DNA of 62,305 bases, counting the filler, from Basidiobolus ranarum (Eukaryota): the NCBI GenBank assembly GCA_040143965.1. It is 8 parts of 8 records of this genome, joined end to end, with 100 filler letters (N's around TTAATTAATTAA, not from the genome) between each part and the next. Parts side by side here need not be neighbours in the genome. Positions count along the whole stretch, not along the records: positions 39,052 to 46,743 come from JASJQH010001080.1; 7 more parts are not named here. One strand, written 5' to 3'. Within the stretch, counting starts at the first letter, position 1. Each line of letters opens with the position of its first letter. Below, piece after piece: positions 7,725-54,627 of this stretch. The notes beneath the pieces were generated by a model, which was not told the DNA's origin, searched no databases, and worked only from the letters and a program-made list of their open reading frames with translations. Position numbers and translations under genes: made by a program.

Positions 7725-7824
7725 NNNNNNNNNNNNNNNNNNNNNNNNNNNNNNNNNNNNNNNNNNNNTTAATTAATTAANNNNNNNNNNNNNNNNNNNN
7801 NNNNNNNNNNNNNNNNNNNNNNNN
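7725..7824. other. Artificial contig linker (44N-TTAATTAATTAA-44N)
   Basis: Identical 100-nt spacer with stops in all six frames; recurs seven times in the window. Confidence 0.98.
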
Positions 7825-15538: not shown

Positions 15539-15638
15539 NNNNNNNNNNNNNNNNNNNNNNNNNNNNNNNNNNNNNNNNNNNNTTAATTAATTAANNNNNN
15601 NNNNNNNNNNNNNNNNNNNNNNNNNNNNNNNNNNNNNN
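15539..15638. other. Artificial contig linker
   Basis: Same 44N-TTAATTAATTAA-44N spacer. Confidence 0.98.
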
Positions 15639-15717: not shown

Positions 15718-18022
15718 CTAAACGGCCTTTTTGGAATCTGGTTTAAGAGGACAATGGAAAATAAGGAAACCGGAAAATTCAAGCTCACTCTCAATGAAAT
15801 CTCTTTCAACGTGGGCAATCTGACTTTCGTTGAGCTGCTGTGAATTGAGACGCTTATAACCTAAAGCTAACACGCGACTACCACGTCGACTGTAGTACTT
15901 ATAGATCTCTTCGTACCTTTCAGGGACACGAGTTAACATTTTTTGTAAAACTTCGGGGGCACCTTTAACAGCAACGAAGTATTGACGACTATGACCTCCA
16001 GGAGATTGAATCTTAGAGATGGTAGACATACGTTTCAAAGCGGAAGAGAATTGGAATCTTCTAAGGATATGAAGAGTTGAGTCCTTATATTCCATGGAAA
16101 CTACACGGTCACCCTTTTCCAGATTCCATCCAATAGCTTCTAGAGAAACCTTTTCCATTGGATCACCGACTACTCCATCTTCGAGGAGAACCAAAGCATG
16201 GGCACCAGCCAAAGTCAAAATAGAGTCATGAGGAACAATCTTAGGCTCCAATAAATTCAAGGGATCTTTTCCAAGACCAGCAACACCCTCAACTACCAAA
16301 TTTTCACCAGTCAAGGTGCCAGTTTTGTCGAAGCAACACACATCTACCTTTCCAGCGAAAGGAATACGGAATGGTTCAGTACAGAAAATAGCATATCTTG
16401 CCAAGGCAACCAATGATGAATTAACAGCTAGAGAAAGTTCCATGGGTAACTCAGGAGGCACAACGGAAGTAATGATTAAGATGCAATCCAAAACCAATTT
16501 GGACCTTGTCTTGAGACCATTCTTAGTACCTTCAATCCAGACGTAGGCTGATGCAGCAATAGCAAACATCAACAAGAAAAGAATAAACATAAATGCCTCC
16601 ATATTGTTGGCCGACACTCTCTCAGTACTATAGATCATAGTACGAACAAGCTTTCCTTGGGCAGATCCAAATCCAGTACGTAAGACATAAGCGATACAGC
16701 CACCATCTGGGGCAGCATATTCAGAGCTTGGAGGAGTGACTTGTAAAATCTTAGTACCACCGAACAGCATATGGTTTTTATCAACATCGTCAATATCCAA
16801 AATATCTTCAGGATTACGTAAGGAGATTGATTCTTTGAGTAGAGGAGTAGATTCACCAGAAAGCATTGCTTCATTAACAATGCACGAGCCATCCACCAAA
16901 ATCATATCACATGGTACTGCAGTTTCTTCTGTGGATCTTACAATCGAGCATAAATCGCCAGGGATTAATTCATCAGATTGAACTTCGATCCATTTACCAC
17001 TACGACGAGCGTGGATCTTGAATGGTTGCATGGATAATGAGCGGAATTCTTTAAGGGTCTTCAAACGTTGAAAGACTACAGTTGATTCGAACACAAGCAA
17101 CATAACTAAAGTGAACAACGAGTAATACCAGTAATCATCTAAGCACCAAAGAGCCACGCAGAAAAGCTGGAATACAAAGAATGGGGCAACAAGATGCTCG
17201 GCAAATAACTCTTGGAAAGTAGGAAGTGGAATATCAAATCGATTGTGACCGTACTTCGTCAAACCAGTATGAATTGACTCTTCATTCTCCAAACCTTTAG
17301 AACTCTGAAAGACTGAAAGAGGTGGTTGATTTTCGCAAGGATATTGGAGTCTTTCAAAAGATTGTTTCTCCTTCGAATAGATATACTTCTTCTTTTGGAA
17401 GAAGAATGATAATTGCTTACCCTGTATGATAAAAGAAGCATATTAGTTAACTACTTCTCAAAAATAACATAGTTCATACTCTCTTCACCTCATCTATTAT
17501 AAGGTCACAAATTGCGCTGGATCCACGAGATTTAATAGGGGTAACTTTGATAAGCTTGGCTTGGAAAGGATCGTATTCCTTATGTGAAGAAAAGAATATT
17601 AGCAAATAGTCACATACATCTGAACATTTCAAATATACAAACTTATATGCATATTTTACTTACTCTTTTACAAGTCAATAGGGTGTAAATGTCAATACTC
17701 CATTGGCAAATCAGGAAAGAAAGTGCATGAACGGAAAGCATTGCGATGATGGAAACAAAAGTATACTCTTGAGAACCGAGGTATTCATCATATTTGAATA
17801 AATATATGTATAACCAAGACGGATAGACTGGCAAAAACGGCCAAACATATGCATGCCAGAAACGCGGCCGTAGCGTGTACAAAGTAGCGGCCGTGATGGA
17901 TTTTGAAGCAACAAGCCTTTAAAAAATGAGTTAATTTGATGAAGCATTATTGATAGCTTGAATTTCCCACATATCCTGTTATTACAAACTCATTTTACAC
18001 TTATGGATAAAGAAACTCACAT
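15718..18022 (-). CDS. SPF1: P5A-type ATPase (Spf1/ATP13A1-like), multi-exon, C-terminal half missing
   Basis: PFFVFQ, LSGES, PPELPMEL, CFDKTGTLT, FSSALKRMS and KGAPE motifs; upstream exon LRPRFWHAYVWPF. Reading frame stops after CPLKPDSKKAV. Start coordinate inferred. Confidence 0.88.
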
Positions 18023-23349: not shown

Positions 23350-23449
23350 NNNNNNNNNNNNNNNNNNNNNNNNNNNNNNNNNNNNNNNNNNNNTTAATTA
23401 ATTAANNNNNNNNNNNNNNNNNNNNNNNNNNNNNNNNNNNNNNNNNNNN
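23350..23449. other. Artificial contig linker
   Basis: Same spacer. Confidence 0.98.
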
Positions 23450-24350
23450 TTTTCTTCAATGAATATGGTATCTCTGGAGTGATGGATTGATTTGTGCCAG
23501 CAATTAGGAGATGATAGCCTTTGTTCTGATATCCTAGTAGGATACATTTAATTGCCCTTTTGTCCAATTTCCTATGCTGGGGTTTAGGAATATGAGCATA
23601 TACTATTGATCCAAAAATCTGAGGTGATTTGGATTAAGCTTGTTTTGAGTCCAGATTTGAATAGAAGTTTTAGAGTCATGGTTGCTAAGTGTTGGACTTC
23701 TATTTTGGAGATATGTAGCTGTTAAAATAGCTTCACCCCAATAGGTCTCAGGCATATCTGAATCAATCAGCATTGTACATGCTTTGTCTACTAAAGTCCT
23801 ATTCATCTTCTCTGCAACTCCAATTTGTTCTGCACTATATGGAATAGTAATTTGCTGCTGAATTCCATTTTCTTGACAAAAGTTAGTCACGGCTTCATTG
23901 CTAAATACAGTTCCATTATCACTCCATAGGTATTTGATTTTTCTTCCTGTTAAGGTTGTAACCATTGCTTCATATATCTTGAAATATTGAAACACTTCTC
24001 CTTTGCTTGACAGAAGTTGTGAAACTGTGAAGTGAGATTTATCATCAATAAAGATGAGTAAATATTGTTGCTGAGTTGGTGTCCAAGCTTGCATTGGGCC
24101 AGATGAGTCTGTATGAATAAGATACAATAAATCTCTGGCTTTGCTAGCTCCTTCTTTTGGAAAAGGTCTTCTGGTGATTTTCCCTTCAATACACCTTTCA
24201 CATGTAGTAATAACTGAGGGCTTAAGATCTGTTCCAGTAGATGGGCTATTTTTATATAATAGTTTCACACTATTATAGATTAGAAGACCCAAGCACTGAC
24301 ATCAAGTCATCCAGTTTCCAGAAGTAATTGCTGCAAAGTTAGAAACAGTC
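23450..24350 (-). mobile_element. Ty1/copia integrase remnant
   Basis: CERCIEGK, IHTDSSGPM, SDNGTVF and EQIGVAEKMNRTL (rve domain); truncated by stops. Confidence 0.85.
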
Positions 24351-31152: not shown

Positions 31153-31252
31153 NNNNNNNNNNNNNNNNNNNNNNNNNNNNNNNNNNNNNNNNNNNNTTAA
31201 TTAATTAANNNNNNNNNNNNNNNNNNNNNNNNNNNNNNNNNNNNNNNNNNNN
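31153..31252. other. Artificial contig linker
   Basis: Same spacer. Confidence 0.98.
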
Positions 31253-38951: not shown

Positions 38952-39051
38952 NNNNNNNNNNNNNNNNNNNNNNNNNNNNNNNNNNNNNNNNNNNNTTAAT
39001 TAATTAANNNNNNNNNNNNNNNNNNNNNNNNNNNNNNNNNNNNNNNNNNNN
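38952..39051. other. Artificial contig linker
   Basis: Same spacer. Confidence 0.98.
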
Positions 39052-39603
39052 TTTGCTCACGGTAGTGACTGCTTCCGGGATTTGTCTTGACAAACAAATA
39101 GTAAAATGTTGAAATGTCATACTTTATGCACTTCTATACCTAAGTTTAGTCCAAGCTTTGATTGATAGCCATAAATGAACGTTAATAAGTAATTTCCGGT
39201 ATCAGTAATGCGTTTCGAATGTTGACTGGTATACATTCTTAGAATATTTTCATACTTATGATGTTTACAAGATAGGAAAGAGAAAAGAATGTACTACTCT
39301 AATTACTATTTATGTTTTGTGGAAGTAGCTTAGTCCAGGACTAAATTAGGCGCTAGTTACTTGATTTACAACGATAAAATATTTATTACATTATTCAATT
39401 GAACACAAAAAAAACATTTCGAAATTACTACAGTTTGGTTAACATCAAGACAAGAAACAGCTGACTCCAGGTCAGTAAAGTATTGGTTGTACATTGTGGG
39501 TTACGTACAGGTCATATGAATAGCGTGAATCTTCAGATTGCTAGTGATAAAGCTGCTAATTATAAGTTAAATTAAATGGAACGCTAGCCTTGTTGTACTG
39601 AGT

Positions 39604-39990
39604 TCAATTACTGAGAGAATCTACACCATTACTTATTAATGATCGGAGGTGGTCACGCAAGGAAACGCTTCGCTTCTTGGTGTGACCACAGAACCACCTT
39701 CCACATAAGTCATGTAAATCCCGCTTATCATTCATGGTAGATGGTTGTTCATGTACTATTTGCTCTTCAATTTTTACAGCAGTCGTCCGCTTAGAATCAG
39801 TGTTGGCTGTTTCGACTTGAACAACTACAGAGATTTCTTCACGTTTGGTATGACCGCAGAACCATCTACCGCACAAGTCATGAAGATCCCTTTTATCTCC
39901 TGCTACCGATTGGAAATGTTGATTTGTAGGTAAACTTTCTACGGTCAGAGTAAGAACAATAGAGACTACGAAGATGCTGATAAATTTCAT
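39604..39990 (-). CDS. Secreted Kex2-processed repeat peptide precursor 1 (2x DLHDLCGRWFCGHT)
   Basis: Signal peptide MKFISIFVVSIVLTLTVES|LP; cores at 39847-39888 and 39679-39720, each flanked by KR ... KR/KKR. Confidence 0.92.
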   Translation of the reverse strand: MKFISIFVVSIVLTLTVESLPTNQHFQSVAGDKRDLHDLCGRWFCGHTKREEISVVVQVETANTDSKRTTAVKIEEQIVHEQPSTMNDKRDLHDLCGRWFCGHTKKRSVSLRDHLRSLISNGVDSLSN

Positions 39991-40062
39991 GACTGTATTG
40001 GAAAGATACGTAGTGCTGATGTTGTAATAGAACTGATTGAAGAGTATCGCTCTGGCGCCTAG

Positions 40063-40316
40063 CTACTTATATGGTTTAACGGTCATATCTCGGGTAAAAT
40101 GCATTTCATCGGTTAATTCGTGATTCTCAGTCGCCTGATTCCTAGAATATTGGATTTTACAGATTAATTTAGATGATTCCTTGGGTAAATATCTTGATGG
40201 TGTCAAGAGACATCTCAGAAAATAAGGTTTTGACAGGCTAGTGGGCTTAGGCATTTCTCAGAACAAATATGATGAGACAGTGAAATCCCAGATTCTCAGT
40301 TGTTGGATTCCTTGAA
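40063..40316 (-). promoter_or_regulatory. Representative promoter of the precursor genes: TATAAGTAG plus several TTCnnnGAA palindromes
   Basis: TATA at 40063-40071 (paralogous sites 41073, 42236, 43253, 45072, 46335); TTCnnnGAA at 40139, 40255 and 40308. Confidence 0.65.
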
Positions 40317-40629
40317 TATATATTATTTTGTACAAGTTGACCTTTTTGATAGCGTGATTTTAAAGCATTGATTCTCGCCCAATATCACGATCAATTTATC
40401 CAGATATAGATTTGAGTATAGTAGAATATTCCCAATTTAGTAGATTCACAAAATGCCAATAAATTATATTAACACCAGATAGTTTATTAAATGTTAATTG
40501 AGAGTCAAGAAAGGGGGAGTATTCAAAATCACCACAGGTATGTTGACAAAAAGATAAGAGAAAACTGACTCCCGGACAGTAAAGTAATTAAATAATATGA
40601 TTAGTTAAATGCGGTAATAACTATGATGT

Positions 40630-41001
40630 TCAACTACTCAGATTGTGAGCAATTTCCTCCTTATAAGATCTAAGATAGTTGCGAAGAATAACGCTTCTTT
40701 TTCTTGTATGTCCGCAAAACCATCTGCCACAAAGGTCATGGAGATCTCGCTTGTCGCTAGTAAGTGATTGTTCACGCACTGTTTGCCCCTCACTTTTAGT
40801 AGAGTGGTTGGTGGACGATGATTCGCTTGACCCTACTGGAGATTGATTCTCACGTTTAGTGTGACCACAGAACCACCTGCCGCACAGGTCGTGTAAGTCT
40901 CTCTTGTCTCTTGCTAATTCTTTGGTACCTTGACCCATAGGCAGGCCTTGAGCAGCCATAGTGAAGACAAAAGAAGCAACTAACATGGTAGCAAATTTCA
41001 T
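40630..41001 (-). CDS. Peptide precursor 2 (2x DLHDLCGRWFCGHT)
   Basis: ATG at 41001 (MKFATML...AQG|LP); dibasic-flanked cores. Confidence 0.92.
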   Translation of the reverse strand: MKFATMLVASFVFTMAAQGLPMGQGTKELARDKRDLHDLCGRWFCGHTKRENQSPVGSSESSSTNHSTKSEGQTVREQSLTSDKRDLHDLCGRWFCGHTRKRSVILRNYLRSYKEEIAHNLSS

Positions 41002-41965
41002 GATGGTATTGAAAGATATTTGGGGTTGATATGTTAACAGCACTATTTGATAAATCTCACACTGTCACCTAGCTACTTATATAGTTTAGCGACTTTTTCT
41101 CGTGTGTTGGAGGCAAAAATCAGGTTCATGTTGCGGAGTTGATTGATTCCCAGAACGCGTATCAGGTGACACACATTGGCGTAATATGAATTAAAGTATT
41201 CTGCCTGCTATATTTCTTTACCAAAGTTGTAATATTAAACTTAATTGAAAATCATTCATGTACGCTGACTTATGGTTTTCATCTTCCCGTATTGGAGCAC
41301 GCTTCTGAATGCTAATCCCACTTTCAAACTTGTACTGTTCACCAGGCAACATATCAGAATAGGATTCTCTACCTTCATTACTTTTATATGCTACTGAAGC
41401 AGCAAGAAAACTAAAGCGAATCGCATGATTCTTGGAAAAAACTGGGAAGTATACCATCCCGATATCTAATCTCTTTAATAGTGTAACTATCATTCTGCGA
41501 AGGTTATGAAATCAATTAAATGATTCGTGTTTCTCACTTGGTTGATTCCCAGAATACAAATTTGGTGACACCACAGAACAGGTACCTCTACAAAATCAAT
41601 TTTATTCCGCTAATCTAAAATTATTGACTATACTAACTATCTTCACTATCTGACATGCTCTAGTCAACACGCGTTTAGGATAAAAATGGTAGAGTGAATT
41701 TTAGCATGAGAGACGATAATTCAAGTCAAATATTAAGGTATTCCACTTTATATACAACATATTGTTAAGTCAGTTAGTTTCTAACAAATATACATCTCTA
41801 TACCAAATGCTCTCTTGATGTACGACATACAGATATTAATAAATTGAATACGAAAGGAAAAAGTTCAAAATTATGTCAGTTTAGCTAGTGAAAAAGTATC
41901 AAAAAACCACGGTTAACGGAAGATTGCTTGTGCATTGATGGCGATGATCTTAAGCATATGTATTG

Positions 41966-42172
41966 CTATGAAATACTGAAATCAACTGGGGTATTACTTT
42001 GCCCTGCTAAAGGGATTTCCGCACGCCTAGTGTGGCCACAGAACCACCTACCACATAAGTCATGAAGGTCTCTTTTATCTTCCGCTGCAACCTTGAAATC
42101 TAGATCCAAAGGTAGACTTTGTACTGTTAAAGTGAGAACAGTAGAAAGTAAAAGTATACTGGTCACTTTCAT
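41966..42172 (-). CDS. Peptide precursor 3 (single core, 68 aa)
   Basis: MKVTSILLLSTVLTLTVQS|LP...DKR-DLHDLCGRWFCGHT-RR; stops within the spacer region. Confidence 0.85.
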   Translation of the reverse strand: MKVTSILLLSTVLTLTVQSLPLDLDFKVAAEDKRDLHDLCGRWFCGHTRRAEIPLAGQSNTPVDFSIS

Positions 42173-42827
42173 AGTTATATCAGAAATATAATGAGTCAAT
42201 AGAACAGTTTGAATAGCATCATCTCCTCATTTGTTTACTTTTATAGTTCAATAGCCATGGCGAAGACAAAATGCATAAAGTAGTGGTTTGATTCCTAGAA
42301 TGGTACGTTATACAACTAATCTGAATGTCACCAACTCTACTGAATATTTCAATAATCAAGAGAGGCACTTTTGTTAAATATTTCTTAGAAAAAATACGAT
42401 GAGACAGTGTCATTGATTCACTTGTTGCATTCCTAGAATATCCAGTGATACAAAGTGATATCTCTAACCATTTCAAGATTAAGCAAGTTACCTTTTAAAA
42501 TGTCCCGGTTGCTTTATCCGGATACATTGACGTTTAACATGATATGCATATAATTCAGAAATACTAGTGATATTTTTAATTTGTTCTGGCTAAAGATCAC
42601 TAGATAATGATCGATGAACGATAATTAAGAGGAAAATATCAAAATTTATTTTAATTACTTGTTTGTTGACAAAAAGGTTGGTAATAACTGACATCTGGGG
42701 CGTGGAAATGTGCTTGATATACTACTTACAGAGATATAGCCATATTCCCAAAGGACTAAAAAGGTAGCAGTAGGTAATAAGTTGCTTTATGGTGTAGTGC
42801 TTAACTGTGGAAATAGTTCACATGTTC

Positions 42828-43208
42828 TTATTTTGTGGATCTGAGATTGTTACGGAGTATAACACTTCTTTTTCTGGTATGCCCGCAGAACCATCTGCCA
42901 CATAGGTCATGTAAATCTCGCTTGTAACTTGTGGTGGTGAGCAATTGCTCATTGACCGTTGTCTTTTCAATCTTAGTTTGTTCTGAATCGACAATTGGGG
43001 ATTCATCTACACCCACTATAGAGGCTTCTAGGACAGATGTTACTGAAGATGCATCCTCGCGTTTAGTATGGCCACAGAACCATCTGCCGCACAGATCGTG
43101 TAAATCTCTCTTGTCTCCTGCTATTGTTTGGACGCTTTGGTCTATAGGTAGGCTTTGAACAACTAATGATACAACAGTAGAAGCAACAGCTAAGGTGGAG
43201 AATTTCAT
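42828..43208 (-). CDS. Peptide precursor 4 (2 cores, shortened tail)
   Basis: MKFSTLAVASTVVSLVVQS|LP; the upstream ATG at 43247 lies only a few nt from the TATA box, so 43208 is preferred. Confidence 0.92.
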   Translation of the reverse strand: MKFSTLAVASTVVSLVVQSLPIDQSVQTIAGDKRDLHDLCGRWFCGHTKREDASSVTSVLEASIVGVDESPIVDSEQTKIEKTTVNEQLLTTTSYKRDLHDLCGRWFCGHTRKRSVILRNNLRSTK

Positions 43209-44161
43209 GGCTGAGAAAGTGAATCGTGAAGAATGATACTCGGACATCTAGTTACTTTTATAGTTTAGTCAACATATCTCAAAGTGCTTCTCAGTTGGCT
43301 GATTCCCAGAATACAAATTGAGTAGTACGATCCGTAAATGGATGGAGCAGGTTAAGCTTTCGTGCAAAATCGAGTGCATCCATAAGACATTGGATCAGAG
43401 GTTATCGAACCTTGGCTCAACGTAATAATATAATAATGACAACAAAATAGTATGGCGTAGATTATCGGATTAACTACACATACATATATAACAGATAAAT
43501 TCAGAGTGAAGATTGTCCATCATTATCCACTCCGGCGAATATCTCAATAACTTCAAGAGATATCTCTAAAGTATGTTTCGGTAATTTGACTACTTATTGA
43601 ACTTACCGAGAATTTCTTAGTAGAAATACAGTGAGACAGTGTCAGCTAGATTCGAAGTGGTTGAATTCCTAGAATAACACAAATTGACATTTCATACAAT
43701 ATGAGGATAAAACATGTTAATCTCCCTAGAATTTCCGGATTGGTTTTTCTCATAGCCATTTTCTACTTGGATATATGCATAAGAACATCTACGATAAGTC
43801 AATTCTTGTGAGATATTAGATGAACTATCACCATGTTCTTATTTTAGCGAACATACAAGGAAGAGAAGCGTAATTCTTCGCGTGAGCCTATCTAACTATT
43901 CCATATATATTCAATCATGAATACTCTGAGTTAATGATCGGCTATACACAGGCTGGAAATATGCTTACATAACCAGGTCAATTCTGGTTTAAATATACTC
44001 ATCAAACTGGTATATGTTCGAAGTATAGTACTCTGTGAATGAGGCTAATAAAAGTTAACCGTCACATTATCTCATACTACTCATTCTAAGATGTCTTCAA
44101 GAAGGAATATAAATATCTGCTGCTAACTTTACTTTAATAACATTGAATCAAGATTACACCT

Positions 44162-44551
44162 ATGAAGCTCTCCAGTATGATTATTACTTCTGTCATTCTT
44201 ACTCTGACAGTTCAAAGTCTACCTACGGGTCAAATCTTCAATGGATTAGCTGGAGACAAGAGAGACCTGCATGATTTGTGCGGCAGATGGTTCTGTGGTC
44301 ATACTAAACGTGGTGAAGAAGAATCCCTAACGAGCTTAACTGATGCAGCAGTCACCAACACGGAGCTAAAGACTCTCACCAAGACTGAGGAGCAGAAAGT
44401 ACATGAACAGTCATCCACTACTAACGACAAGCGGGATTTACATGACCTTTGTGGTAGATGGTTTTGTGGCCACACTAAGAAGCGAGGCATAACTCTACGT
44501 GATCATACAAGGTCTGAACTCAAGAAAAGTATAGAACATTTACGTAGATGA
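44162..44551 (+). CDS. Peptide precursor 5 (2 cores)
   Basis: MKLSSMIITSVILTLTVQS|LP; KR-flanked cores. Confidence 0.92.
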   Translation: MKLSSMIITSVILTLTVQSLPTGQIFNGLAGDKRDLHDLCGRWFCGHTKRGEEESLTSLTDAAVTNTELKTLTKTEEQKVHEQSSTTNDKRDLHDLCGRWFCGHTKKRGITLRDHTRSELKKSIEHLRR

Positions 44552-45169
44552 AGACTGTAACACGAAGCAGTCTTTTAATAGTGTGAATTTGTTTGTGAGT
44601 GCGATATACACAATTCGTCAAATGATTAGTTCAGTTGATACATCCTACATTTCACCTACTAATTTATCAAGCCATTCATCACTGACCCGGAGTCAGTTAT
44701 CTTACCCTTGCTTCAACAATACTGTTGTAATTTTGTACTCTCTTTATTTGACAAATAATTGAAACAATAAATATTCTAATATCGACATGCTTTGCTTAAA
44801 ACAGAGTGTTATTCATCGCAGTTATCTCCAATATGTGATAGAACATATACCGGACAGCCAAAGTAGCTGAGTATTATATAGTAATACCGCTACAGGGTCA
44901 GATATTATAATCGCAGGTAATGTGTTTAAATCCATCCAAGTTTAATCCGGTTGAAATGTACTAAGTTGGAATGTAATTCATTCGAATCACAAAATGTTCT
45001 GGGAAAGCAGATACTCAGAATTACTGATTGCTCCAATGTTTACTATACATTCTCAGAAAATCACTAAAACGTATAAGTAGCCAACAAATAGAGCATACAT
45101 CCTCCGATCTCGTCACTTCTTCTATATCATCGACACTACAACAAACTTGACTATCTTTCCACTGCAATA

Positions 45170-45628
45170 ATGAAGCTTACCAGCTTATACGTCGCCATTA
45201 CTCTGTTTACCTTGACTGCTCAAAGTCTACCTATGGGACAAGGCTACACGGCATCAACAGCAGATAAACGAGACTTACATGCCCTATGTGGAGGATGGTT
45301 CTGTGGCCATACAAAGCGTATGGAAACATCTCAGGAGAGTGGACTAGGCTTACCAATTACCAACTCCAAAAATGGAGCTCATATCAAAGAGGAAGATAAG
45401 GAACTCTATACACCCAACGACAAAAGAGACCTACATGACCTGTGTGGTGGGTGGCTTTGTGGACACACAAAGAGAAGTATCACCTTACGTGGCAACATCA
45501 TCTCTGCAATAAAGAAGAGTGCAGAATACTTAAACGATCAAATCCTTTACAACAAAGCGAGGTCAGAAATAGTAAAAGATGTTAACCATCCTGGCCTTGA
45601 TCGTTTTTGTGGAGGCTGGTTCTGCTGA
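45170..45628 (+). CDS. Peptide precursor 6 (variant cores DLHALCGGWFCGHT and DLHDLCGGWLCGHT; C-terminal degenerate LDRFCGGWFC)
   Basis: Same signal and pro-region architecture with substituted cores. Confidence 0.9.
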   Translation: MKLTSLYVAITLFTLTAQSLPMGQGYTASTADKRDLHALCGGWFCGHTKRMETSQESGLGLPITNSKNGAHIKEEDKELYTPNDKRDLHDLCGGWLCGHTKRSITLRGNIISAIKKSAEYLNDQILYNKARSEIVKDVNHPGLDRFCGGWFC

Positions 45629-45815
45629 TGCATTAGCCACTTTAACAGTATATATATAGCTAATTCGAACATGTAATATTTAATTTTGACAATGGTTTCT
45701 CACTGCGATTTTGGCATCAAAATAAAAGAAGTTGGTTTATGTTGAGATTGAGAGCTATTAAATCCACTATATCTACTTTATAAAGAGAGTTTATATGTAT
45801 ATTATATGTTAGTAG

Positions 45816-45875
45816 GGAAGACGAGATCTACATGACCTATGTAATAACACTAAACACGGAGAAATATCGCTGGGG
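45816..45875 (+). pseudogene. Remnant of a peptide core (GRR-DLHDLC-NN-TKHGEISLG)
   Basis: AGA CGA GAT CTA CAT GAC CTA TGT at 45819-45842; preceded in frame by TAG, with no signal peptide. Confidence 0.7.
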
Positions 45876-46409
45876 ATCATGGTGGTATTACCATTATATA
45901 AACTACGTATTGAAATTTCAAGTCCTTATGCTGATACAAACACTCCAGACATTGAAGGAGATTTAATGATAGCATAGCAGTATATTCTGTTATTAAGAGT
46001 TACTTTGACTATCGAAGGCACTGCAGAGATCAACCAGCTCTATCGTCATAAAATCGAATATATCGATTTTGTGTCACTTAATATTCTTGGAATACATCAA
46101 CTGAGAATCCGGAATGACACTGTTTCATCGTATTCTTTCTAGGAGACACCTACTAAGAGCAATAATCAAACAAATGGTAAAAATGTATTTTCTGAGTTAT
46201 TACACGGTATTAGCAAGATACTCACTAAAATCAGGAGCCATCTAACTTAGCCTGTACAACCTAAGGTTCTGGGAACGAGGCGAGAGAGTATCGCAAATGA
46301 TATGTATTTTACTCGAGATGCGGCCTCTAGATTATATAAGTAGTTAGGTGATAGAACGACAGTCTTCAAGTAATTCTGTTGCAACATCAATCTCAAGTGT
46401 TCTTCAAGT

Positions 46410-46743
46410 ATGATTATGAAATTCATCAGCCTATTTTCGGTTTTTACGGTTCTTACTCTGACCGTACAAAGCCTGCCTGCAGATCAAAACTTTAGAGCTG
46501 TCGCAGAAGATAAAAGAGATCTTCATGACTTGTGCGGAAGATGGTTCTGCGGTCACACAAAACGCCAGGAAATCTCTGAAGATGATAGAAGCGAAATACC
46601 GATTATTAACTCTAAGCAAATTACTCCTAAAATGGAGGAAACAGTGCATACACAACCACCTACCGTCGGTGACAAGCGAGATCTACATGACTTGTGTGGT
46701 AGGTGGTTCTGTGGGCACACTAAGAAACGAAGTGTTTCCTTAA
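46410..46743 (+). CDS. Peptide precursor 7 (2 cores; 3' end cut by contig end)
   Basis: (MI)MKFISLFSVFTVLTLTVQS|LP; two KR-flanked cores, then KKRSVSL into the linker. Confidence 0.92.
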
Positions 46744-46843
46744 NNNNNNNNNNNNNNNNNNNNNNNNNNNNNNNNNNNNNNNNNNNNTTAATTAATTAAN
46801 NNNNNNNNNNNNNNNNNNNNNNNNNNNNNNNNNNNNNNNNNNN
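46744..46843. other. Artificial contig linker
   Basis: Same spacer. Confidence 0.98.
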
Positions 46844-51466: not shown

Positions 51467-53234
51467 ATGATGTCCACCACTAGTGGAGAGAACCCGCCTA
51501 TATACAAAACCATCGGTCTTATTCTTGCTGTATCCAGCGGTAAATTATCCTTTCAGTACGACGGGGTTGCATTAACTTCGCTAACTACTATTGTGAAAGA
51601 TAGGCTTCTTCATTGGAAGTAGCTTTATAATAAAGAAGAAAGGGCTTTTGCAATCATACGCTGCTGGTAAGAGTGAATCTCCCTCATATTACACAACCAT
51701 CATCTATTAACCAGGATTTCAGGTGGTGTTCCAGGCGAGGGACATCAATATCTAAAATCTAAGCTATGGTGGGCTGGAATGATTTTGAGTATGTTCCCTT
51801 ATTTTGTTTGACTACGGCTTATTTACTAATTAATTTTCAACATCAGTGGTTGTAGGAGAGATACTTAATTTCGTTGCCTATGCATTCACCCCGGCCATTC
51901 TAGTCACTCCCTTAGGGGCTTTGAGCGTCGTTGTCAGGTATGTTATACTCCTAACTAGTAAAATATATACAATCTGCTGATCTCAACTCTCCTACAGTGC
52001 TATACTCTCAGCTGTTTTCCTCAACGAAAAACTCACATTTGTAGGGAAAATTGGGTGCGCTATCTGCGTGGTAGGGGCTATCATTATCGTGTTACATGCA
52101 CCAGAGCAGAACGCTCCACCGACAATCGCAGCATTTATGGAATACGCAATATCTCCAAGTAAGTATGTTCCCGCAGGTGCAAGTTTCATTGTGATTTTGC
52201 GACTTATCATCAAAATTTCCCCTACTTTAGTATTCGTCACCTACGCAATAGTCGTTATTTTGATCAGTCTTTTTTTGATCTTTAAAATTGCACCTAGGCA
52301 TGGGAAGAACAATATGCTAGTGTATATTAGCGTTTGCTCACTTATAGGTTCTCTTTCTGTAGTCTGTACTCAGGGACTTGGTGCTTCGATTGTGTACTCT
52401 ATCACTACTGAAAACCAGTTCAAGCATCCTTTCATTTACGCTCTGTTGATATTTGTTATTGTTACGCTACTGATTGAAGTAGACTACTTGAACAAAGCGT
52501 TAAATCTATTCAGTACTGCAATTGTGACCCCAGTGTACTATGTAATGTTCACTACCTACACCATCCTCTCGACAGCTATCTTGTTTAGAGGCTTTCATGC
52601 AGAACCATTGAGTATTGTCACCGCAGTATGTGGCTTCTTAGTAATATGTGGAGGTGTACTTTTACTTCATATTTCTAAGGAATCAGAAGAAGCAGTTAGC
52701 GAAAGTCGTAACGAGTTGGATTCCGAAATGGGGCAAATCGAAAAACTCCCTCCAGCAGTCTTAGCAGATTCAGGGCGGATAAGATCAATTAATGGTGGTA
52801 GTCAAGAGCCTGTGGTGCCGATAAATCGTTCTACCGAACACTTGCCACTTCACCAATCATATAATATATTTACCCCTTCTCAATCATCTCCTCTCGCACG
52901 TAGAAAATCTAGTTCCGGGATCAGACGTACAACTACTACGATAGGCCCTCCCAGTGGCTTCGACTCGATCAGACGTACTCGGAGTAGAAGAGCCTACACT
53001 CTCGAGAGTGGATACTCGAGAAACCCAAGACAGATAGGAGTTAATGATTGCCAATTAGCATTGATTCCTAGTGCTGCTCCTGGGTTGTTGCCCGGTGTGA
53101 CCGTATCTAGAATTCGTTCGATATCATCGTTGAAATCTAATCGAAGTACTCGTTCAGATCATTCACGGACCGCGGTCCATCCTCAAGACACCGAAGGCAA
53201 TGTGAACTTGATTACCTCCCCTTCGGACAGCTAG
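51467..53234 (+). CDS. NIPA/DUF803 family magnesium transporter (multi-exon)
   Basis: IGLILAVSS, SFIIKKKGL, YLKSKLWWAGM, NFVAYAFTPAILVTPLGALSV, VYISVCSLIGSLSV and YLNKALNLFSTAIVTPVYYV. Confidence 0.9.
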
Positions 53235-54527: not shown

Positions 54528-54627
54528 NNNNNNNNNNNNNNNNNNNNNNNNNNNNNNNNNNNNNNNNNNNNTTAATTAATTAANNNNNNNNNNNNNNNNN
54601 NNNNNNNNNNNNNNNNNNNNNNNNNNN
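54528..54627. other. Artificial contig linker
   Basis: Same spacer. Confidence 0.98.

Follow-up and report, generated by a model that had tools for sequence, protein, structure and literature searches.

The DNA analysed here, called the window throughout, is a stretch of 62305 bases from the fungus Basidiobolus ranarum, made up of eight contigs of approximately 7.7 kb that are joined by N44-TTAATTAATTAA-N44 spacers. The G+C content is 32-42% all along its length. One of the contigs, extending from position 39052 to 46743, carries an array of seven paralogous open reading frames (ORFs), g1 to g4 on the minus strand and g5 to g7 on the plus strand. Each has the form of a small secreted precursor from which a Kex2-type protease would excise a 14-residue peptide with two cysteines, in one copy or in two. 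All seven lie where a first-pass annotation of the DNA had placed them, and the source, which that annotation had expected to be a zygomycete-grade fungus, is B. ranarum, assigned to the Basidiobolomycota in the NCBI taxonomy.

A six-frame scan of the entire window for the pattern C-x4-C-[GA]-H gives 13 matches, and all 13 fall within the array contig. Eleven are the identical peptide DLHDLCGRWFCGHT, and the remaining two are the variants DLHALCGGWFCGHT and DLHDLCGGWLCGHT, both in g6. The scan agrees with the earlier count of 11 identical cores, two variants and one degenerate copy, the last being FCGGWFC at the C terminus of g6. The 13 copies of a 14-residue peptide are written in differing codons, and so do not arise by chance. 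The order of elements read in the first pass also agrees with the sequence. A signal peptide is followed by a pro-region, then by KR, the core and a dibasic pair, and then by a spacer, a second KR-core-dibasic unit and a tail; g3 has a single core.

The minus-strand genes occupy the first part of the array. g1 (39604-39990) encodes a precursor of 128 aa with cores at 39847-39888 and 39679-39720, and g2 (40630-41001) one of 123 aa with cores at 40858-40899 and 40705-40746. g3 (41966-42172) is truncated, its 68-aa precursor ending early after one core (42029-42070). A second core was sought 3′ of g3 and none was readable there; a full-length relative of g3 on a different contig (P0010) has two. 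g4 (42828-43208) encodes a precursor of 126 aa with cores at 43065-43106 and 42876-42917, the second of which is preceded by YKR. The Met that is conserved in the family lies at 43208 in g4, and a further in-frame ATG upstream, at 43247 and adjoining a TATA-like site (see below), is probably not used.

On the plus strand, the 129-aa precursor of g5 (44162-44551) has its cores at 44264-44305 and 44435-44476. K7432_012430, which is the public model of this gene, starts six codons earlier. g6 (45170-45628) encodes a precursor of 152 aa, in which DLHALCGGWFCGHT lies at 45272-45313 and DLHDLCGGWLCGHT at 45428-45469. Its long tail has the FCGGWFC copy (45605-45625) right before the stop codon, with a single Arg and no dibasic pair in front. 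g7 (46416-46743) has cores at 46518-46559 and 46680-46721, and its precursor is incomplete because it is interrupted by the end of the contig. Seven precursor genes are thus present as had been claimed, but they are not all complete.

These precursors are the sole genes of the 7.7-kb contig, again as the first reading had it, with the addition of two decayed fragments of the same family. Both are on the plus strand. The fragment at 45819-45884 reads RRDLHDLCNN... and contains a broken core, and that at 43840-43881 reads EHTRKRSVILR, which is the end of a core followed by the start of a tail. The fragments indicate that genes are born and die as the array evolves. Other small ORFs of the contig are antisense or overlap promoters, and the four of them that were tested gave no Pfam match above cutoff. 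Rfam families, tandem DNA repeats and transposon features were sought on the array contig and none was found.

Conservation is concentrated in the cores. Over six of the window genes, Nei-Gojobori proportions of synonymous (pS) and non-synonymous (pN) differences were calculated for each part of the precursor. For the two cores with their dibasic flanks pS is saturated (0.82-0.90) and pN is 0.009-0.036. The corresponding values are pS 0.69-0.71 and pN 0.40-0.43 for the spacer, pS 0.58-0.59 and pN 0.31 for the signal peptide with the pro-region, and pS 0.77 and pN 0.33 for the tail. The 13 cores of the window use nearly all of the synonymous codons available, with the amino acids fixed: five codons occur for Leu, three or four for Gly, both of those for Cys, His and Asp, and four for the flanking Arg. 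Since pS is saturated and pN tiny, it is purifying selection, acting over the long term on both the peptide and the sites of its cleavage, that has kept the cores identical. Gene conversion or recent duplication was considered as a source of identical cores, and is ruled out by the saturated synonymous sites within them. The same saturation marks the paralogues as old, and the contrast between core and spacer has the signature of a precursor whose sole important product is the core.

The C-terminal tail that follows the second core has the consensus S-[VI]-x-L-R-x-x-L-R-S... (for example 39604-39675 on the minus strand). It is moderately conserved, with a weak helix prediction, and instead of being mere filler it might serve in sorting or be a second product in its own right.

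The family extends well beyond this contig. With g5 as the query, 21 matches were obtained among 5.8 billion proteins, 16 of them from B. ranarum with K7432_ locus tags and five the window's own. Counting g3, which is too short for the length range of the search, there are 22 genes on nine contigs. The B. ranarum family therefore numbers at least 22 genes. The amplification at the level of the gene that had been proposed is upheld, but the array is not the entire family, being one of approximately three paralogous clusters. The 22 proteins contain 42 cores, 31 of which are identical. KR stands in front of every one of the 42, and KR, KK, RK or RR stands behind 41. The first core always comprises residues 35-48, and there are two cores per protein except in g3 and P0021, which have one. 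Near-identical peptide units with dibasic boundaries are a feature of the Kex2-processed repeat proteins (KEPs) of fungi.

A second KEP feature is a signal peptide for the endoplasmic reticulum (ER) at the N terminus. This was assessed with a hydrophobicity heuristic, and on that basis it is present here: 26 of the 28 family proteins fetched have a 12-residue N-terminal hydrophobic stretch (mean Kyte-Doolittle value 1.66-3.09), and the other two are truncated gene models. The N termini begin M-[KR]-x and continue with about 14 hydrophobic residues and then (V/A)Q(S/G)-LP. When all ORFs of the window were scanned for a signal-like start five passed, and four of those five are family genes.

For most of the window's seven genes, the closest gene in a maximum-likelihood tree is one on a different contig, and not a neighbour. 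Three of the cross-contig pairs are strongly supported; g3 and g4 lie in unresolved forks. This pairing implies that the seven subtypes are older than the duplication of whole clusters, and a single ancestral array present in roughly three copies would seem to account for the 22 genes.

All identified relatives belong to the same genus. Among 1.84 billion representative proteins, a profile search returned seven at E <= 0.001, all seven from Basidiobolus, and three word-index searches of the 5.8 billion proteins returned 21, 3 and 25 proteins, among which every match with a named source is from Basidiobolus. In B. meristosporus CBS 931.73 at least five gene models contain KR-DLHDFCGGWFCGHV-KR, the core being present twice in one of these models, and some of the B. 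ranarum copies keep the Phe5/Gly8 state of B. meristosporus. Both species also have a second, more distantly related type of precursor (type B, the precursors described above being type A) that contains KR-FWNMRYYCGGWVCAH. Type B proteins have up to three copies each of KR-FWNMRYYCGGWVC[AM]H, the last often C-terminal, and are represented by P0025 and P0027 of B. ranarum and P0028 of B. meristosporus, all outside the window. The element common to both types is C-G-G/R-W/F-x-C-x-H, and the ring of type B reads C-G-G-W-x-C-x-H.

A degenerate DNA pattern for H-D-[LF]-C-G-[RG]-W-x-C-G-H has no match in either prokaryote genome contigs or metagenome contigs of the Joint Genome Institute (JGI), and a DNA pattern for type B has none in the JGI metagenomes. 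Bacterial gene transfer and environmental spread were considered, and were rejected on the lack of matches in the prokaryote genomes and JGI metagenomes. Within the reach of these sequence searches the family is genus-wide and restricted to Basidiobolus. Two public models of B. meristosporus, P0022 and P0026, have two signal-peptide-like segments each. Each looks like two small neighbouring genes that the gene caller has joined into one, and the copy number in this species is therefore probably under-counted.

The upstream regions of the window genes are conserved as well. They contain a box of approximately 25 nt, TTCTRGGAAT-CA-N3-CAACTGAGAA, exemplified by that of g1 at 40123-40147 on the minus strand. 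The exact 9-mer TTCT[AG]GGAA is found 103-173 nt upstream of the ATG in six of the seven genes, the copy of g5 being degenerate. For the minus-strand genes these proximal 9-mers have their first bases at 40147 (g1), 41155, 42300 and 43311; those of the plus strand start at 44997 and 46267. Distal copies of the box lie 266-553 nt upstream of g1, g2, g3, g4 and g7. All eight exact matches to TTCTRKGAAW in the window are in the array contig, where 2.71 would be expected, and eight were reached in one of 100 shuffles. The enrichment is weaker if one substitution is allowed, with 20 of 54 matches falling within 12% of the window.

Between the box and the gene there is a TATA-like site, TATAWAAGTA, some 45-75 nt upstream of the ATG. 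Exact matches occur on the minus strand at 41074-41083 (g2), 42236 and 43253 and on the plus strand at 46333, and a stray match at 41379 on the minus strand is beside no gene. Five of the six matches in the window are in the array contig, against 0.71 expected. The promoters of g1, g2, g4 and g7 are approximately 70% identical over 81-165 nt. That the box and the TATA-like site have been kept despite saturated synonymous sites argues for live, co-regulated genes, and the box is a candidate for a shared regulatory element.

Database comparisons place the precursors in no characterised family. Six window proteins were compared with Pfam and none gave a match above cutoff; there were weak, short matches to zinc-binding modules. 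Those to zf-RING_13 (PF17977) cover 10-22 of the 68 profile positions and are below the curated cutoff in all six proteins. The B. meristosporus protein P0030 reaches 27.1 bits against a cutoff of 25 only by adding two short core matches, and automatic annotation would be likely to mislabel it as a RING protein. The best match in the PDB is a C2H2 finger with E = 0.33. The AlphaFold2 model, calculated with the 21-sequence family alignment, has a mean predicted local distance difference test (pLDDT) score of 49.3 and a predicted template modelling (pTM) score of 0.23, with helices in the signal peptide and weakly in the tail; the ESM Atlas model has a pLDDT of 0.49 and a pTM of 0.14. The precursors are thus predicted to be unfolded. 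An ESM Atlas feature search ranked a yeast alpha-factor (MF_alpha) cluster fourth with a score of 0.79, which is a lead only.

CGRWFC, CGGWFC and the full cores occur in the main text of none of the papers searched; supplementary KEP tables, which could list a B. meristosporus member, were outside the scope of that search. Literature on Kex2, pheromones, peptides made on the ribosome and modified after translation (RiPPs) and the secretome in Basidiobolus yielded nothing about the 14-mer family. The first-pass annotation had not recognised the core as any known peptide, and it proves to match no Pfam family, PDB structure or main text; the motif and homologue searches it had proposed matched no characterised peptide family and found relatives in Basidiobolus only. 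Its reading of the genes as Kex2-type precursors is sustained for the layout. The class as such is already known, and it is the peptide family itself that is new.

The layout has a number of precedents. Prepro-alpha-factor of Saccharomyces cerevisiae (MFalpha1/MFalpha2, processed by Kex2, Kex1 and Ste13) likewise has a signal peptide and a pro-region followed by identical KR-flanked peptides of 13-14 residues separated by spacers, and MFalpha2 has two copies only. However, neither MF_alpha (PF04648) nor MF_alpha_N (PF05436) was matched at E <= 10 by the six window proteins. Alpha-factor precursors have the X-Ala/X-Pro sites of Ste13, whereas all 13 window cores start with D-L right after KR, and there are two alpha-factor genes against 22 here encoding a two-cysteine peptide.

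The two-cysteine alpha-pheromones of the Sordariomycetes, Leotiomycetes and Dothideomycetes (for example the ...PCW type, and RFCHLPGQGCSK in Xylona) are also released by Kex2, and like the 14-mer they have about 10-14 residues with two conserved cysteines and a Trp (PMC6339444). They have no sequence similarity to the present cores, and differ in the spacing of the cysteines, in having Ste13 signatures and in belonging to Dikarya lineages. The dikaritin precursors (those of ustiloxin, UstA, phomopsin and asperipin) similarly have a signal peptide and then cores between Kex2 sites. Their cores are of four residues with Tyr and are cyclised by DUF3328 oxidases encoded nearby, whereas the type A cores have 14 residues and none of the 42 contains Tyr. 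With regard to a neighbouring DUF3328 (UstYa) gene, the 7.7-kb contig holds precursors only, and surveys for such genes span 15 genes. Candida albicans Ece1 (candidalysin) and Ustilago Rep1 are likewise secreted polyproteins cut by Kex2 at KR (PMC7329392), but they are encoded by a single gene each and give amphipathic or hydrophobic products without a cysteine ring.

The broadest of these classes is that of the KEPs, secreted unfolded precursors with repeated cores between dibasic sites (PMC6339444; PMC7329392). Surveys of them have covered 250 fungal secretomes (PMC6339444) and 1461 strains of fungi (PMC7329392). In the larger survey B. meristosporus is the richest of the 1461 strains, with 43 KEPs, and the Zoopagomycota the most densely populated phylum (PMC7329392). 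Because KEPs were already reported to be abundant in Basidiobolus, the novelty lies in the peptide family and not in the class. The pipeline of Le Marquer requires at least three repeats per protein, and some alpha-pheromone precursors fall short of this (PMC6339444); the procedure of Umemura is described as 'fundamentally the same' (PMC7329392). With one or two cores per protein the present family lies below that threshold, which is a search cutoff and not a biological definition, and it was therefore probably missed by the KEP surveys. Thresholds on the number of repeats overlook families that are amplified by gene and not by repeat number. S-3, the one Basidiobolus KEP type described in that text, is rich in Tyr and Asp (PMC7329392), whereas the 14-mer is free of Tyr, and the locus tags of the B. 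ranarum assembly appear in the available text of neither survey (PMC6339444, PMC7329392).

The architectural reading is well supported by the sequence evidence, and it is quite likely that the product of the genes is a processed, secreted 14-mer. With moderate confidence we take the best explanation of the data to be that these are Kex2-type prepropeptides releasing a disulfide-ringed 14-mer that acts outside the cell. A signal peptide of approximately 19 residues, with cleavage likely after ...VQS, would carry the unfolded precursor into the ER. Cys6 and Cys11 of each core would pair locally, closing the six-residue ring CGRWFC. A Kex2-type convertase in the Golgi would cut each core free, once behind the KR that precedes it and once behind the dibasic pair that follows, and a Kex1-type carboxypeptidase would trim the trailing basic residues. 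The cell would then release DLHDLCGRWFCGHT, with a monoisotopic mass of 1656.69 Da in the oxidised form and a net charge of approximately -1, the spacer and tail serving as carrier sequence.

All 14 positions are fixed in old paralogues and the sister species has a fixed variant of its own, which argues that a specific partner reads the peptide. A signalling role is ranked first because the constraint on the 14 positions and the species-specific variants favour partner recognition. Of the roles open to the 14-mer we would tentatively put first that of a self-signal, whether autocrine, density-related or developmental. It is possible, if somewhat doubtful, that the 14-mer and its species variants (DLHDFCGGWFCGHV in B. 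meristosporus, and the FWNMRYYCGGWVCAH type) are the ligands of a dedicated pheromone- or quorum-like system in Basidiobolus.

Some observations weigh against a signal. The number of genes, 22, far exceeds the dosage needed by known fungal pheromones, and suits a stoichiometric product. The His-x2-Cys-x4-Cys-x-His spacing is compatible with a metal site too. In addition, kep knockouts in Coprinopsis have no phenotype, and their authors propose a function in biotic interactions (PMC9769878).

The same precursor and the same processing could deliver a peptide aimed at other organisms, such as microbes of gut or soil, grazers or the vertebrate host, on which it would act as a toxin or antimicrobial or by mimicking a host hormone. 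In the size of its C-x4-C ring, which three residues follow, it resembles oxytocin, vasopressin and urotensin II, and the dosage from 22 genes would suit a product made in bulk. Basidiobolus is an opportunistic pathogen that lives in dung and in amphibian and reptile guts (PMC9391592, PMC10386755), and it was the lack of phenotype in KEP knockouts that led others to roles in biotic interactions (PMC9769878). We nevertheless regard such an effector as rather unlikely. The peptide is slightly acidic, with its charge of about -1, whereas typical antimicrobial peptides are cationic, and there is no similarity to toxin or antimicrobial families in Pfam or the PDB. Effectors engaged in an arms race usually diversify, whereas the present cores are the same in 31 of 42 copies and have a pN as low as 0.009-0.036.

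It is improbable that the peptide is instead a secreted binder of zinc or copper, a ribosomal 'metallophore' in which His3, Cys6, Cys11 and His13 would be ligands and no disulfide would form. The H-x2-C-x4-C-x-H tetrad is nearly invariant, and the Cys, Cys and His are retained in type B, which has in addition a Met three residues before the first Cys. The sole weak similarities of the family are to zinc-binding modules (zf-RING_13 at 14.6-27.1 bits, Prok-RING_2, UPF1_Zn_bind and the C2H2 finger in the PDB), and a stoichiometric binder would account for the massive gene dosage. Yet these matches are short (10-22 of 68 positions) and fall below cutoff except in the one protein that sums two fragments. 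Two cysteines in transit through the ER are expected to oxidise. Moreover Leu2, Leu5, Gly7, Trp9, Phe10, Gly12 and Thr14, none of which would be a ligand, are as strictly conserved as the tetrad, and a simple chelator would have no need of that.

Similarly improbable is that the cores are those of RiPPs, modified further after Kex2 cleavage by cross-links at Trp, Cys or His in the manner of dikaritins or amatoxins. The precursor layout is as in ustiloxin-type precursors (PMC7329392), and Basidiobolus genomes are unusually rich in genes for secondary metabolites (PMC10386755). The contig, which is just 7.7 kb long, contains no genes beyond the precursors, however. The cores lack Tyr, the residue that is cross-linked in the known dikaritins (PMC7329392), and the conservation of all 14 residues is atypical against a core of 4-8 residues.

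That the proteins stay uncleaved, whether they act whole as small secreted proteins with a pair of Cys-His knuckles or are non-functional ORFs of a repeated element, is very improbable, given that the dibasic flanks are conserved like the cores (42 of 42 in front, 41 of 42 behind) and the intervening sequence drifts, that neither AlphaFold2 nor ESM Atlas predicts a fold, that the signature of selection and the conserved promoters rule out junk, and that the contig shows neither transposon features nor tandem DNA repeats nor any RNA family.

We know of no peptide signal in the Basidiobolus lineage, nor of anything established on its signalling or its small secreted peptides. If the 14-mer is a signal as proposed, no ribosomal peptide signal would have been demonstrated before it in a fungus outside the Dikarya. 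The signal would come from an early-diverging fungus that is associated with the guts of amphibians and reptiles and occasionally infects humans. The sequences provide one exact candidate that can be cheaply synthesised, 14 residues with one predicted disulfide, together with the sister-species variant and a second type of ring for comparison. They thereby open signalling by peptides, defence or the handling of metals to a direct test in a fungus outside the Dikarya.

The remainder of the window was also annotated. The joins between its contigs lie at 7725-7824, 15539-15638, 23350-23449, 31153-31252, 38952-39051, 46744-46843 and 54528-54627, and features are not to be read across them. The other contigs contain ordinary fragments of eukaryotic genes. 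A long open frame with P-type ATPase domains (15718-17442, minus strand) and another with a NIPA magnesium-transporter domain (51981-53234, plus strand) are housekeeping fragments, and an ORF resembling glutathione S-transferase is also present among them. A neighbouring contig has an integrase core domain (rve, E = 8e-09) at 23603-24301 on the minus strand, which is a retroelement fragment.

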